From assembly GCA_016206175.1 (NCBI GenBank), contig JACQSB010000018.1, positions 1,334 through 65,333 of the forward strand: DNA of 64,000 bases, written 5' to 3'. Made by a program: the position numbers and the translations under genes. Under the pieces are notes generated by a model that saw only the letters and a program-made list of their open reading frames with translations, was not told the DNA's origin and did not search any database. Shown here piece after piece: positions 58,469 to 62,837 of the stretch; within the stretch, counting starts at the first letter, position 1, and each line of letters begins with the position of its first letter. Origin of the DNA: Candidatus Uhrbacteria bacterium. Its GTDB lineage: Bacteria > Patescibacteriota > Patescibacteriia > JACQRZ01.

Positions 58469-58565
58469 TTGACAATAATAATTGACGTAGTATTCTAGGG
58501 ATAGAATCCACATTGAGAAGCACCTCCTACGGTTCCGTCCTTAGGCGGTGTTTTTCTTTTTGTAC
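58469..58565 (+). ncRNA. candidate ~60-nt convergent antisense transcript at the 3' end of NYN gene 1
   Basis: TTGACA (58469..58474), 16-nt spacer, TATTCT (58491..58496). Hairpin CACCtCCTA...TAGGcGGTG (58521..58550) followed by TTTTTCTTTTT, overlapping the NYN stop codon at 58541..58543. Confidence 0.3.
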
Positions 58566-59050
58566 TCAAGTTTCTTCTGAAGATTATTGATAAAAACAAG
58601 CTTCTCTTTTGCCGTGCTCTTTAATAACGTTGAACATGTTTTGTAATAAGGACTGATGACCTTTTCGAGTTTATTCTTCTCATACAAAAAATTCACGGCT
58701 GAATAAAAGTCTCCGTCGCTGGTTACCAATACCGCCCTAGCACAATTGTTCTCGAAGTGGTCGATGACGATTTGAAGCACCATATCGGCATCGACATTCC
58801 CTTTATGTGCGCCGTCTCGATCTGGCAATACAGGCTTGAACTTCAGAATATATCCACTTTTTTGTAAGGAGCTATACAGGTCTTGGTTTTGAGGAATAAA
58901 GCCGATAAAAAGATAGGCAATCTTTACGGAATATTTTTCCGTTAAATAGACTCGAAATTTTTTGTAATCAAGCTTCCATCCTAGGCTCTGTACTCCGAGA
59001 TTAAGATTTTGACTGTCGATATAGGCATAATTATTTTCTTTGGCGATCAT
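58541..59050 (-). CDS. NYN (LabA-like) domain nuclease-family protein
   Basis: YAYIDSQNL...GNVDADMVL...VLVTSDGDF are NYN/PIN-like acidic motifs. ATG 59050 (MIAKENNYAY) follows the terminator of the kinase gene. Confidence 0.75.
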   Translation of the reverse strand: MIAKENNYAYIDSQNLNLGVQSLGWKLDYKKFRVYLTEKYSVKIAYLFIGFIPQNQDLYSSLQKSGYILKFKPVLPDRDGAHKGNVDADMVLQIVIDHFENNCARAVLVTSDGDFYSAVNFLYEKNKLEKVISPYYKTCSTLLKSTAKEKLVFINNLQKKLEYKKKNTA

Positions 59051-59079
59051 ATCACTGCAGTATACACTATAAATATCAG

Positions 59080-59104
59080 ATACAAAAGGCCCCCAAGGGG
59101 GGCC
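59080..59104 (-). terminator. intrinsic terminator after the histidine kinase gene
   Basis: Minus strand reads GGCCCCC-CTT-GGGGGCC followed by TTTTGTATCT. Confidence 0.72.
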
Positions 59105-59239
59105 GATTGTGCTCAATATACTACTTGGCTCTCGATCGTGGACGATGTGAGAACCCATCTCATGAAATGATATAATTGATATTGTGGACTGCTTTATCAA
59201 TAATCATACAGAATACCTTTTGAAGATTTACCTGAGGAT

Positions 59240-60880
59240 TTACCGATTTTTCATAACCAAGGGAATGGAAACAAAAAATGTTGCGCCTTTCTGTTCTTGT
59301 GACTCAAACCAGACAGACCCGCCAAAACGATCCACAATCTGTTTGACAACATAGAGCCCAAGGCCGGTACCGACCGCATTGAGTGCGCGGGCGTTATCTG
59401 CGCGAAAAAGTTTTGAAAAAATTTTATCGTGCTGATGAGCGGGTATACCACAGCCCGTATCAGCAATCTTCATGACAAGGCTGTCCACGTTCATCTTCCT
59501 GCCATCTACGCACTCGCCTTTTGTTACCCTCCAAACAGCGCAATCAATCGTACCCTTTGAGGGTGTATATTTAATCGCATTAGAGAGAATATTGATAACG
59601 ACCATGCGTAACAATTTTTGATCAATCAGCATGGTTGGGAGGTCATCAGCAAAGTGTGTCGCAAGCGAAATATTTTTTCGTTCAATCTCCGATTTCTGTT
59701 CACTGATGACGTGACTGATCACGGATACAGTATCGGTTGGCTCGAGCTTCAGAGTCAGTGTACCGAGCTCCAAACGCGCGACATTAAGCAGTGCGTCTAC
59801 CAGGCCAGCCATCTGTTGATTACTTTCATAAATTTTTTCAAAAAATCTTCTCTGCTGCTCATTGAGGGGGCCTGCGTCACCAGACAACAGCATCTCAGCG
59901 TGCCACTTAATTGTTGTGATTGGACCGAGTAGCTGATGGGAGGCAAGCGATACAAACTCTGTCTTTACCTTGTCAATTCCCTGTTCCTTTGTTATATCCC
60001 GAAATATCTCAACCGCGCCGACGACAGTATTCTCCAGCATGACCGGCGTAACGGTGATGGCGACCGGAAATTTTGTCTTGTCGCTGCGTATATAATAAAA
60101 ACCCCCGTGAATCGTTTTCATCCTTGGAAGATCCCTGCGCCATGCTTCGTCAGTAGTAGTAGTAGTAGTAGTAGTTGAGGTGGTTGTAGACGTCCCCGCC
60201 GACAGGGCGACTGACATGGGGCGATCGATCGTCGCAACAAGCTCTCCTTTTTCGTTCTCAATTGGAAAAATATCAAAGAGCAGCTTTCCGATAACATCCT
60301 TGCCCTCCAAACCAAGAAGTGCTTGCGCCGCTTGATTCATGCGCGTTATTCTGCCGGAAAAATCAAGGGTAATAACGCCGTCCCCGATACTGGCGAGGAT
60401 TGCCTCAACATGGGCCCTGACATGCGCGAGCTCTTGCTTTTCCGCTTGTAAATCCTCAAAAACGTTTCGCGCGGCAATCTTCGCATCTTCAGCTTTTTTC
60501 TCTATGAGTTTGTGTTCGGTGATATTCTGAAATACGGCGACAAAAAAATTTTTGTTAGGGCTGTATGCCCTGACGAAAAACCACCGTTCAAGCGACTCGA
60601 TGTGCATTTCAAAATCTTCCGATACTCCAGTCGAGGAAACTCTGCCGCAAGCCTCGAACAGTGTCGGATTTGATGCGATAATTCCGGGAATGAGCTGTGT
60701 GACATTCTTGCCTACGACATCTTTCAACCCGGTCAATCGTTCAAAATTTTTATTTACCGCAAGATAGGTAAAATCAACCGGACGGGCACGGGCATCAAAA
60801 ATCATGCGGCAATACATGATGCCGTCCGGCGAATTATCAAACAGTGACTTGTGGAGCTCTTCTGCATCCCAAGCGTTCAT
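59240..60880 (-). CDS. cytoplasmic PAS-PAS sensor histidine kinase (orphan, no cognate response regulator in window)
   Basis: Two PAS-like regions, H-box FVSLASHQLLGPIT, and N/G boxes NAIKYT, DTGCGIP and GTGLGLYV. Confidence 0.85.
   Translation of the reverse strand: MNAWDAEELHKSLFDNSPDGIMYCRMIFDARARPVDFTYLAVNKNFERLTGLKDVVGKNVTQLIPGIIASNPTLFEACGRVSSTGVSEDFEMHIESLERWFFVRAYSPNKNFFVAVFQNITEHKLIEKKAEDAKIAARNVFEDLQAEKQELAHVRAHVEAILASIGDGVITLDFSGRITRMNQAAQALLGLEGKDVIGKLLFDIFPIENEKGELVATIDRPMSVALSAGTSTTTSTTTTTTTTDEAWRRDLPRMKTIHGGFYYIRSDKTKFPVAITVTPVMLENTVVGAVEIFRDITKEQGIDKVKTEFVSLASHQLLGPITTIKWHAEMLLSGDAGPLNEQQRRFFEKIYESNQQMAGLVDALLNVARLELGTLTLKLEPTDTVSVISHVISEQKSEIERKNISLATHFADDLPTMLIDQKLLRMVVINILSNAIKYTPSKGTIDCAVWRVTKGECVDGRKMNVDSLVMKIADTGCGIPAHQHDKIFSKLFRADNARALNAVGTGLGLYVVKQIVDRFGGSVWFESQEQKGATFFVSIPLVMKNR
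60152..60175 (-). repeat. (ACT)8 trinucleotide microsatellite encoding poly-Thr inside the kinase
   Basis: The + strand has (AGT)x8 at 60152..60175. The protein reads GTSTTTSTTTTTTTTDE. Confidence 0.9.
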
Positions 60881-60889
60881 TGGCGTGAG

Positions 60890-61519
60890 TTAAAAGTTGT
60901 CGTCGTGGCCGGATAACGCGCTTCTGTCTTCATTATTTGTAATCCGCGCCTTGAGGTCCTCGATTTCTTTTTTGAGCTCAACCATTTTTACTTCCCGCCC
61001 GATCATGGTTTCGTTCAGTGTTTCCAATTCTTTTACGCGTGCCTCCAATTCTGTTGTCCTCTTTGCCACTTCTCGCGTGAGTTCTTCGGTGTATTTCTTC
61101 ATTTTATCCTCAAGTTCTACCTGTTTGGTAATGTCCTCCATAGCCAGTAGTACAATCGGAGTTTTGTTATCCACCGTGAACACCTGCCGTGCGTTGAGCA
61201 TCATAATGCGGAATCCAATGCCCGGAAAATTGTGCTCCACTCTAAAATCTTCAAAAAAGGTATTATTTGGCAGAATATCCTCAAGTAAGATTTTTAATTT
61301 AGGAATATTCCATTGGCCGTTCCCCAAATCATATACTTTTTTCCCTTCTGTTTCCTGGGCGGTTGTCTGAAAAAACGCATAGAATGTTCTATTGGCCGAG
61401 AGTATATTCAGTTCATCCCCGAGAACTAAAAACGGCTCCCGCACAGTATCAACAACCGTCCTAATATACGTCCATGCGACTTTCCATAGCTCATCCGCCG
61501 CGATGTCACTTTGTTTCAT
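60890..61519 (-). CDS. PAS-domain protein with C-terminal coiled coil
   Basis: PAS-like fold (FLVLGDELNILSANRTFYAFF...GNGQW) followed by a heptad-rich tail. Lies 9 nt upstream of the kinase gene. Confidence 0.7.
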   Translation of the reverse strand: MKQSDIAADELWKVAWTYIRTVVDTVREPFLVLGDELNILSANRTFYAFFQTTAQETEGKKVYDLGNGQWNIPKLKILLEDILPNNTFFEDFRVEHNFPGIGFRIMMLNARQVFTVDNKTPIVLLAMEDITKQVELEDKMKKYTEELTREVAKRTTELEARVKELETLNETMIGREVKMVELKKEIEDLKARITNNEDRSALSGHDDNF

Positions 61520-61713
61520 AAGGTATGCTTCTTAAAGTGCTGATTTATAACAATAAGTATAGCATGCTTTTTCGCATACTAGAATGCCATGAAACTCATA
61601 TCCCTCAACAATTAGGCGGTTCCAGGAATAGTTTTTTTGTGCACGAGGTTTTGTTTTTTATGGTAATTTCTTCTCCATATCCTCGTCTTATATACTGCCA
61701 TGGTTATCCACTA

Positions 61714-61805
61714 TGGACACAGGTTCGTTTCTGTGGTATAGTGGAATCGTAGGTGAAAGCCTACTAATCACGCGGTCCCGCCACAAGCGGGATTTTCGCT
61801 TTTTA
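61714..61805 (+). ncRNA. candidate ~55-nt convergent transcript abutting the 3' end of NYN gene 2
   Basis: TGGACA (61714..61719), 17-nt spacer, extended -10 TGgTATAGT (61734..61742). Hairpins GTAGG-TGAAAG-CCTAC and CCCGC-CACAA-GCGGG, then ATTTTCGCTTTTT ending on the NYN stop codon (61803..61805). Confidence 0.35.
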
Positions 61806-62453
61806 TAGATAATTCCTTTTACCGTCATAAAACCTTCCAAAATCAATATAGCGATCTTTTACCTTATGGAGCTCGCCCGCTGTCATATTGCGGACACCCA
61901 CGATATACACCTTTTTGCCCTTGAGTTTGAGCCGCTCAAGCGGCGCAGCCATATCGGAATCGCCGGAGTAGAGTATTACGCCCGAAACTTTTTCAGCATC
62001 ATCCATGATGTCCATTGCCATCTCAACGTCAAAATTGCACTTCGGCTCTTCAATGACCAGTCCTGTTTTCCGTATCTCTTCAACAAGCTCGTGCACTTTT
62101 GACGTAATGCCGTCATTGAATAAAGTCATCGTTGATCGCTTAAAAAGAAACGCCTGATCAATATTCTTGCGGATAAACTTCATGGGCTTTGAACGAAGCG
62201 TCGCGCCAGCCAGACGAATCCGCTTGTGAAACGCCAGTGAGGATGCGAGATCGCGCTCATTGACACCGTAATATGCTTTGACTTCTTTTACCGACGGGAA
62301 CGACAAAAGTTGTTTGATGACGCTCTCAATCCGAAACCGCCAACCCAGGACATTTTGCCAATGAAACATATTCGTGATATCGAGATACGCGATGAGTGCT
62401 GTCTCATGGCGAAGAATATCGTAGTATGCGTTTTGCTTTTCATCTACGGTCAT
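61803..62453 (-). CDS. NYN (LabA-like) domain nuclease-family protein, second distinct paralogue
   Basis: IAYLDITN...NFDVEMAMD...ILYSGDSDM are NYN acidic motifs. Confidence 0.75.
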   Translation of the reverse strand: MTVDEKQNAYYDILRHETALIAYLDITNMFHWQNVLGWRFRIESVIKQLLSFPSVKEVKAYYGVNERDLASSLAFHKRIRLAGATLRSKPMKFIRKNIDQAFLFKRSTMTLFNDGITSKVHELVEEIRKTGLVIEEPKCNFDVEMAMDIMDDAEKVSGVILYSGDSDMAAPLERLKLKGKKVYIVGVRNMTAGELHKVKDRYIDFGRFYDGKRNYL

Positions 62454-62649
62454 AGAAATTGCGTGTTGCTCCTTACGGCCTCCTCTTGGGAGACATGGGG
62501 TCAGCCATAATTTTTATCAACCCCACAAATTAAATCATAGCAAGTTTCCTATTGATTTCAATTCTTTTTTGCATTCCGACGGAGAAAAATTCAGATACGA
62601 AAAAGCCCCTGAAGGGGGAGATCCCGCTTTGTATCCTGTCTGGTAAGCA

Positions 62650-62837
62650 CTGACGACATTGAGTTCTACAATCGCGTAGGCGTTCATAAAGCATTTGAAG
62701 AACAGCTCGAGGCAATAAAAACACAAGGATGGACATACAATTACAAACGGCCCCATCAGGCATTAGGGTACCTGACATCCATGGAGTTCTATGAGCTCTG
62801 GAAAAAAATCCCGAGGAAGGGTAAACGCTCAATTTAA
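62650..62837 (+). mobile_element. C-terminal remnant of an rve (DDE) integrase/transposase
   Basis: Not in the ORF track. The + frame reads ...IEFYNRVGVHKAFEEQLEAIKTQGWTYNYKRPHQALGYLTSMEFYELWKK...*. YN..RPH.ALGY.T..EF is the conserved rve tail. There is no upstream catalytic domain and an in-frame TGA lies at 62610. Confidence 0.65.

Follow-up and report, generated by a model that had tools for sequence, protein, structure and literature searches.

A conserved convergent small RNA gene predicted at the 3′ end of LabA-like NYN nuclease genes in Patescibacteria and other uncultured bacteria

Analysis of a 64,000-nt stretch of the genome of a Candidatus Uhrbacteria bacterium (contig JACQSB010000018.1, positions 1,334 to 65,333 of the forward strand; hereafter, the window) indicates that the gene of a NYN nuclease of the LabA-like group, NYN gene 2, is met head-on at its 3′ end by a small RNA (sRNA) gene of about 55 nt. 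To judge from its sequence, this sRNA gene (61749-61803, + strand) is almost certainly real. The sRNA is predicted to be transcribed from an independent, near-consensus sigma-70 promoter with an extended −10 element and to finish in a 3′ hairpin with an internal U-loop that doubles as an intrinsic terminator. A previous reading of the same DNA, made from the letters and open reading frames alone (the sequence-only reading), had described here the promoter TGGACA-17-TGgTATAGT and two hairpins, all of which were found at the coordinates given in Table 1, and had interpreted them as a convergent mini-transcript. This interpretation gained strength from the comparison of relatives, in which promoter and spacing are kept over 62 distinct loci and the RNA displays strand-specific covariation.

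Within the window, the arrangement stands out from the background. A mechanical scan recovered both the promoter (10/12 matches plus the TG) and the terminator. When a unit was defined as a promoter with at least 10/12 matches followed within 110 nt by a terminator, only two units were identified on both strands of the 64 kb, at the 3′ ends of the two NYN genes that the window contains, versus a mean of 0.35 sites per window in Markov simulations. The folding energy of the 61-nt RNA is −23.1 kcal/mol (z = −4.18), and none of 200 shuffled sequences was as stable. Written as DNA, hairpin 2 reads (GCGG)TCCCGC-CACAA-GCGGGA(TTTTCGC) at positions 61772-61799. On the nuclease-sense strand no U-run follows this hairpin, which indicates that it is not a bidirectional terminator. 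Nor would a + strand gene upstream need the terminator, as the sequence-only reading had already argued: the list of open reading frames and the Pfam search place the nearest real genes, which encode PAS and histidine-kinase proteins, on the − strand, and no credible + strand gene was found upstream of the element. Rfam gave no match above the gathering threshold in the window or in seven related loci, and nothing relevant at E ≤ 10 in the region 61500-62700. A transfer RNA or transfer-messenger RNA was discarded because ARAGORN finds none in the window and the loop sizes are unlike those of transfer RNA. A literature search whose scope was papers readable without a subscription returned no description of an NYN-associated small RNA.

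The conservation of the element was analysed in a set of 70 homologous loci, obtained by scanning one genome per species, with 48-65% protein identity, plus five distant paralogs. Most of the loci belong to Patescibacteria, and the remainder come from Omnitrophota, Ratteibacteria, an Ignavibacterium bin and a Methanosarcinales bin. The window element was matched at 75-100% nucleotide identity beside the 3′ end of the NYN gene (60-100 nt) in 65 of the 70 loci. A covariance model of the sRNA, built from 38 sequences, gave a single match in the window (61747-61803, 82.7 bits, E 9e-18) and 67 matches in 375 kb of related loci, one per locus and each on the opposite strand at the NYN 3′ end. The loci lacking a match were two contigs that end at the gene, the five distant paralogs and one pseudogene, L062. 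The 67 matches cover all 65 intact NYN-2-type genes for which downstream sequence exists, from Patescibacteria, Omnitrophota and others. L062 alone in the family lacks the RNA, and its NYN gene is a pseudogene that contains an in-frame stop and breaks off before the SGDSD motif.

The search was also carried out in the reverse direction, by picking metagenome contigs with the terminator motif of the RNA alone, which yielded at least 120 loci. An adjacent convergent NYN-2-type gene was present in 99 of the 115 informative loci; five loci had no room for it and 16 lacked the gene. Among these 16, five bear a distant NYN paralog of 248 aa with its own second convergent RNA, two or three keep remnants of the NYN C-terminus, in two a DUF3800 gene follows hsdM and has a convergent RNA of its own, and in one the RNA faces hsdM directly. 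Decayed copies, in which the sRNA gene is flanked by just the last few NYN codons, were seen in L104, L172 and L176. On this genomic evidence, the sRNA is an obligate partner of this subfamily of LabA-like NYN nucleases. In the loci surveyed the intact nuclease was never seen without the RNA, and the RNA can persist alone, an asymmetry that is expected for a toxin-antitoxin pair.

Several lines of evidence point to selection on a + strand RNA. In the model-based alignment, which was itself fitted to the structure model, 99.8% of the pair cells are paired, versus 40-55% in slid controls, and RNAalifold applied to a plain MAFFT alignment independently recovers hairpin 2 with covariation. Compensatory changes affect 10 of the 16 pairs, including all six pairs of hairpin 1, and the number of double-change cells (73, versus 14 in shuffles) was reached by none of 500 shuffles. 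The alignment contains 77 G·U cells, and one pair of hairpin 2 is G·U in 59 of 61 distinct sequences. Because these cells would read as A·C mismatches on the nuclease strand, and because the loop of hairpin 1 is GNRA or UUCG on the sRNA strand only, selection appears to act on the + strand transcript. Most positions of hairpin 2 are at least 90% conserved, and the linker and the 3′ hairpin are near-invariant across phyla. In a minority of relatives the internal UUUU is the sole U-run.

The promoter has been maintained with similar care. The −35 consensus is T56 T54 G55 A53 C43 A32 (61 of the 62 distinct loci could be scored) and that of the −10 is T58 A58 T51 A48 (C/T) T62 over the 62 loci. 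The TG extension occurs in 47 of them and the spacer measures 16-18 nt, with a variable sequence. The distance between the end of the −10 and hairpin 1 is exactly 6 nt in 46/62 loci, and this fixed gap places the start of transcription at the first base of the hairpin. These features bear on an alternative in which the element would act as DNA, either as the boundary or recombination site of a mobile cassette or as a terminator or insulator, the promoter hexamers being incidental. Nuclease and element do move together between unrelated contexts, the conserved block of the closest relatives ends exactly where variable downstream genes begin, and in the window both the −35 and the −10 sit within the arms of an inverted repeat. 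However, that inverted repeat is kept only in the closest relatives, the hexamers, the TG and their spacing persist while the intervening sequence drifts, the nuclease-sense strand has no U-run after the hairpin, and the G·U pairs and strand-specific loops reflect selection on the transcript. A purely DNA-level function is thus very improbable.

A second alternative is that the match arose by chance or that the conservation derives from the coding of the nuclease C-terminus. The NYN frame enters the element by 16-40 nt in about 53 of 68 loci, which corresponds to the last 5-12 codons, and many of the proteins end in ...KSENPAFGGTA. In the window the overlap is only 2 nt, the stop codon TAA of NYN gene 2 being the reverse complement of 61803-61805. 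The sequence-only reading had the T-run ending exactly on this stop codon. For the window this is correct, whereas in most members of the family the terminator lies inside the NYN frame, 16-37 nt beyond the point at which the gene of the window stops, so that the stop-codon-exact geometry is specific to the window copy and its close relatives. The nucleotides of the element are read in three different frames among L006-L070, giving the protein tails ...KSENPAFGGTA, ...KAKIPLVAGPRD and ...KRKTRS, and in 15 loci, the window included, conserved bases of the element lie after the stop codon and stay untranslated. Compared in pairs, the RNAs are on average 75% identical, versus 61% for the coding DNA. 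Usage of three frames, or of none, implies that the conservation of the element is not due to coding. Changes in loop length, moreover, shift the frame, and the conservation extends through the non-coding hairpin 1 and the promoter. Under one mechanical definition, a unit was called at 41 of 62 NYN-2 3′ ends, versus only 10 elsewhere in 320 kb of flanking DNA; taking the window-wide and locus-wide scans together, promoter-terminator units are enriched about 200-fold at NYN 3′ ends. Three-frame use, covariation and the window scan already refute the chance or coding explanation, which is hardly credible. The KSENPAFGGTA-type tails annotated at the C-terminus of many NYN proteins are probably not functional peptides; they would represent the translated terminator of the sRNA, produced by read-through into the RNA gene.

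The same layout is present at other genes. The sequence-only reading had considered that what deserved attention was the repetition of the architecture at the two NYN genes of the window and not a duplication, since the two proteins belong to clearly different subfamilies and the two RNAs are not obviously alike. The comparison bears this out on each count. The proteins share 29% identity over 72 residues, the covariance model of the NYN-2 RNA has no match at the RNA of gene 1, so that a second copy of the former at NYN gene 1 was discarded, and the NYN-1 subfamily and a third subfamily bear convergent RNAs of their own. Across the three subfamilies, the convergent unit was present in 65/65 (NYN-2), 10/10 (NYN-1) and 9/9 loci. 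In the gene-1 sRNA the 5′ end (AGAAUCCACAUU) is single-stranded and precedes a long hairpin, whose apex is a conserved CGGUUCCGUCC, and a U-run. This RNA folds at −24.4 kcal/mol (z = −3.7), compensatory changes affect 10 of its 16 predicted pairs, and a TTGACA-17-TATACT or TAATAT promoter precedes it in most of the aligned NYN-1-type loci. A small open reading frame downstream of NYN gene 1, with AGGAGG and ATG in the window, was rejected because it is not conserved in relatives. In the third subfamily (L071-L074, the 248-aa paralog), another RNA displays a promoter, a GNRA hairpin, a linker, a GC-rich hairpin and a U-run at the stop codon. Taken together, these data predict at least two, and probably three or more, new structured RNA families.

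Further examples were found beyond the NYN genes. A DUF3800 gene located after hsdM has its own convergent unit in L157 and, past the orphan sRNA, in L137 and L153. The DUF3800 unit comprises a DnaA box, the promoter TTGACA-17-TGATATTCT and an RNA of about 100 nt, which indicates that the layout is not confined to NYN genes. Some of the ten units outside NYN-2 3′ ends are located in L053 (1245-1366, +), L057 (3717-3838, +), L009, L018, L027, L031 and L052, and two of the ten lie directly beyond the sRNA in Omnitrophota loci. Tandem sRNAs occur in L089, L125, L150, L159 and L195, where an orphan NYN-2-type RNA comes first and a third-type RNA follows about 60 nt on; this second RNA abuts the 248-aa NYN paralog, whose gene follows hsdM. 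There is also a tendency for NYN genes of different subfamilies to cluster, as seen from their tandem disposition in L023 (1881-2375 and 2593-3219) and in L200-L203 (940-1317 and 1501-2025). The NYN genes of the window (58541-62453) are 2.7 kb apart, with the PAS/histidine-kinase pair between them; the PAS/histidine-kinase protein at 59240-60880 (−) contains a Thr/Ser run, TSTTTSTTTTTTTTD, at residues ~232-246.

Table 1. Coordinates of the sRNA gene, the NYN genes and associated features in the window.
Feature	Position	Strand	Basis or remark
−35 hexamer TGGACA	61714..61719	+	Consensus scan; small-RNA promoter
Extended −10 TGgTATAGT	61734..61742	+	Consensus scan; separated from the −35 by a 17-nt spacer
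NYN-2-associated sRNA, ~55 nt	61749..61803	+	Start predicted 7 nt past the −10; covariance model spans 61747-61803
Hairpin 1, GUAGGU-GAAA-GCCUAC	61749..61764	+	Six pairs, GNRA tetraloop; folding and covariation
Linker UAAUCAC, single-stranded	61765..61771	+	Opposite the NYN stop codon in most relatives
Hairpin 2 (terminator stem), GCG-G-UCCCGC / GCGGGA-UUUU-CGC	61772..61799	+	Scan, alignment folding, covariation
Terminator U-run	61800..61804	+	2-nt overlap with the NYN stop codon
DnaA-box-like 9-mer TTATCCACT	61704..61712	+	8/9 matches to TTATCCACA; ends 1 nt before the −35
NYN nuclease gene 2, 216 aa	61803..62453	−	Pfam NYN
Candidate promoter of NYN gene 2, TTGAAA-16-TG-TATGAT	62534..62561	−	Consensus scan only
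Rest of the block with ~90% identity to the closest relatives	61650..61713	.	Includes a vestigial gene start
NYN nuclease gene 1, 169 aa	58541..59050	−	Pfam NYN, 50.3 bits; P0121 is 100% identical, 169 aa
Promoter of the gene-1 sRNA, TTGACA-16-TATTCT	58469..58496	+	Promoter scan
Gene-1 sRNA	58503..58561	+	Overlaps the last ~6 codons of NYN gene 1

An unexpected feature of the sRNA promoters is the presence of DnaA boxes. The exact TTATCCACA/TGTGGATAA 9-mer occurs in the promoter region of 25 of the 65 distinct loci, versus about 0.2 expected, and, when one mismatch is allowed, a box is present in 41 of the 65, versus about 1.6 expected. Both orientations occur; the box typically finishes 1-6 nt before the −35 and is sometimes located within the spacer or serves as the −35. 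The box of the window, TTATCCACT, occupies a typical position and is not significant by itself. Perfect boxes beside or within the promoter are a feature of many Patescibacteria loci; just upstream of the −35 they were observed in L007, L008, L010, L012, L013, L015 and others, L010 having a tandem pair. DnaA boxes are also carried by some promoters of the other types of NYN-associated RNA. A nearby replication origin was rejected as the cause of the boxes: neither dnaA nor dnaN nor any other conserved neighbour was found, and boxes are not enriched window-wide. This association raises the alternative that the sRNA is a riboregulator under DnaA control that acts in trans on other genes, such as those tied to replication or the cell cycle, and that its adjacency to the nuclease reflects shared mobility or turnover. 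For such a role, the conserved single-stranded linker might provide a seed region, and the RNA sometimes occurs without the nuclease. On the other hand, in the sequence examined the sRNA is away from an NYN gene or remnant only in a handful of rearranged loci, the boxes are confined to Patescibacteria-type loci and entirely absent from the Omnitrophota copies, and the fact that each NYN subfamily has its own RNA fits a gene-specific role better than a global one. A trans-acting role of this kind therefore seems rather improbable.

The nuclease encoded by NYN gene 2 looks active according to its sequence and its predicted structure. It matches Pfam PF01936 with an E-value of 1.3e-17 and 65.1 bits (cut-off 24.2), and the residues D25, N28, D142, E144 and D151 and the SGDSD motif at 163-167 (D165, D167) vary little or not at all in two alignments, each of 26 sequences. 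The AlphaFold model, with a mean confidence (predicted local distance difference test) of 88.7, agrees with the three-layer PIN-like/NYN fold and has its best matches in the Protein Data Bank with the LabA-like 2qip (E 3e-9) and the NYN domain of MARF1. An insertion of ~50 residues (about residues 95-130) was modelled with lower confidence. NCBIfam provides no name for the protein and PADLOC gave partial matches only, to a generic NYN model and to HEC-09.

The genomic setting of the cassette differs between the window and its closest relatives. In five metagenomic loci (L001-L005) with 88% protein identity, the NYN gene is located between hsdM and hsdS of a type I restriction operon; the same operon also encodes an AbiJ-like protein, and the start of the NYN gene overlaps the hsdM stop codon. 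In these loci, ~150 nt past the NYN stop codon are almost invariant, exceeding the conservation of the coding sequence, with the few variable sites located in the promoter spacer, the loop of hairpin 1 and the start-site region. The conserved block stops at the start codon of the downstream gene, which varies by locus. In the window, six codons of a lost downstream gene persist as a vestigial start (61651-61671, −; ATGGAGAAGAAATTACCATAA). Linkage to hsdM was discarded for the window copy, since, in the stretch 62454-62470, homology to the hsdM of the relatives stops ~10 nt before the NYN start. Loss of hsdM and of the downstream gene places the nuclease-plus-element cassette of the window in a new context. 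Just upstream of NYN gene 2 there is a C-terminal remnant of a DDE (rve-type) transposase (62625-62836, +; ...YNYKRPHQALGYLTSMEFYEL...) without its N-terminal part, which matches Pfam rve_3 with an E-value of 1e-4, below the threshold. More generally, synteny around NYN-2 loci is not conserved. About one third of the immediate downstream neighbours are restriction-modification, toxin-antitoxin, GmrSD, DUF3800, RadC or conjugation genes and the rest are ordinary; abortive-infection genes are also found among the neighbours. A phage-borne module was discarded because neither the RNA pattern nor the nuclease was found in the viral contigs of IMG/VR.

With respect to function, the balance of the evidence tips slightly towards the sRNA being a negative, RNA-antitoxin-like regulator of the nuclease. 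According to this proposal, the strong promoter would produce the sRNA constitutively, its synthesis in Patescibacteria being apparently wired to DnaA, and transcription from it would run head-on into the 3′ end of the nuclease gene. The sRNA might then pair with the complementary 3′ end of the nuclease messenger RNA (mRNA) or interfere with its transcription; alternatively, it might bind the nuclease protein directly, as the type III, AvcI and RCd22 RNAs do. One or both of these modes would hold the nuclease down, and loss of the short-lived RNA, by transcription shut-off or loss of the locus, would release it. The convergent, stop-abutting geometry, which is common to unrelated RNAs, to several NYN subfamilies and to DUF3800, argues that antisense pairing or transcriptional collision matters. 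That the linker and the 3′ hairpin hardly vary from phylum to phylum argues that a protein recognises them, the nuclease itself being the simplest candidate. Each of the two simple models leaves something unexplained, and the two modes are not separable here.

A number of observations weigh against such a negative role. The overlap with the nuclease frame in the window is so short that an antisense mechanism would require the mRNA to read through into the RNA gene. Cis-antisense pairing does not need such high conservation of the 3′ half of the sRNA, just as protein binding does not need a strict convergent geometry. Pairing in trans with the 5′ untranslated region or the start region of the nuclease was tried and rejected, as the sRNA displayed no complementarity to the nuclease 5′ region (duplex energies equal to those of shuffled RNA, z = −0.13). 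For toxins, the conservation of the nuclease families is unusually high, at about 60-85% identity between deep lineages. About two thirds of the immediate neighbours are ordinary housekeeping genes, and both partners were missing from the viral contigs searched.

Some of these observations favour the main rival explanation, in which the sRNA would be a positive partner of a housekeeping nuclease: a cofactor, a scaffold, a specificity element or a dedicated substrate that the enzyme matures or degrades. The conservation of the linker and 3′ hairpin beyond the needs of pairing, which points to recognition by a protein, the strict co-occurrence, the switch of RNA type with nuclease subfamily and the high, housekeeping-like conservation of both nuclease families are all consistent with it. 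However, a positive partnership leaves unexplained why an RNA gene that is convergent with, and abuts or overlaps, the 3′ end accompanies every subfamily and why the same layout exists at a non-NYN gene, DUF3800. In addition, orphan RNAs survive beside decayed nuclease genes, and the RNA lacks a variable 'guide' segment. A positive role is accordingly considered unlikely, if less so than an action of the sRNA in trans.

The negative regulation proposed here can be compared with systems already described. Convergent antisense RNAs that overlap the 3′ end of their target are known from type I toxin-antitoxin loci such as txpA/RatA and bsrG/SR4 of Bacillus subtilis and RNA I/RNA II of the par locus of Enterococcus faecalis. 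As in these loci, the NYN-2 sRNA has its own strong promoter directed head-on to the 3′ end of the partner, the transcripts overlap at or around the terminator (an overlap that is predicted here), and the two genes form an autonomous module that resides in variable or mobile contexts and tolerates orphan copies of the RNA. In contrast to them, the partner is a NYN nuclease of 169-248 aa (a soluble protein of 216 aa in the window) and not a hydrophobic peptide under 60 aa, the stretch shared with the reading frame is short (0-40 nt), the sequence of the sRNA is conserved far beyond antisense needs, and the hairpin is not a bidirectional terminator. The latent ribonucleases PrrC and RloC are encoded inside type I restriction-modification operons, and PrrC is restrained by the restriction protein. 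The position of the nuclease of the closest relatives between hsdM and hsdS recalls this arrangement, but the NYN enzymes belong to another nuclease family, most members, the window copy among them, lie outside restriction operons, and PrrC is not restrained by an RNA.

Single structured RNAs that neutralise enzyme toxins have been described for RCd22/AbiF (PMC12373285) and AvcI/AvcD (PMC10511110). The NYN-2 sRNA resembles these RNAs and that of ToxI/ToxN in being a structured, conserved non-coding RNA linked to an enzyme (a toxic ribonuclease in ToxN and AbiF) and in its defence-island or mobile context, and the working idea is the same, namely that an unstable RNA checks a stable enzyme until transcription stops. 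Unlike the RNA of type III (ToxIN-like) systems, it is a single-copy RNA without tandem repeats, located downstream on the opposite strand and not upstream on the same strand; the enzyme, in turn, has a NYN/PIN-like fold that is not ToxN-, AbiQ- or Abi_2-like, and RNA binding by it is hypothetical. The nuclease agrees with LabA-like/COG1432 NYN proteins (PF01936, 2qip, MARF1) in its score above the Pfam threshold, acidic active-site residues, SGDSD motif and predicted fold, and departs from them in its ~50-residue insertion. In the 2017 classification of the PIN-like superfamily (PMC5499597), the bacterial LabA-like group is entered as 'function unknown', with no mention of an associated RNA.

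These findings have several implications. Bacterial LabA-like NYN proteins number thousands of members with no assigned function (PMC5499597), and a strictly linked, conserved RNA is the first concrete handle on their function and control. The new RNA families come from lineages that cannot be grown alone, in which experimental discovery of RNAs is scarce, and the hypothesis of an RNA antitoxin for a PIN-like nuclease lends itself to testing in E. coli with synthetic DNA. In organisms that possess very few transcription factors, the presence of DnaA boxes at the RNA promoters suggests that the control of replication is linked, unexpectedly, to a nuclease switch. As a tentative proposal, whose truth is rather doubtful at present, NYN/LabA-like nucleases and their family-specific convergent sRNAs might constitute an unrecognised class of RNA-controlled toxin-antitoxin or abortive-infection systems, widespread in Patescibacteria and Omnitrophota, with antitoxin synthesis wired to DnaA by way of the promoter box. 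If this were true, the replication or infection state of the cell would decide when the nuclease is released.

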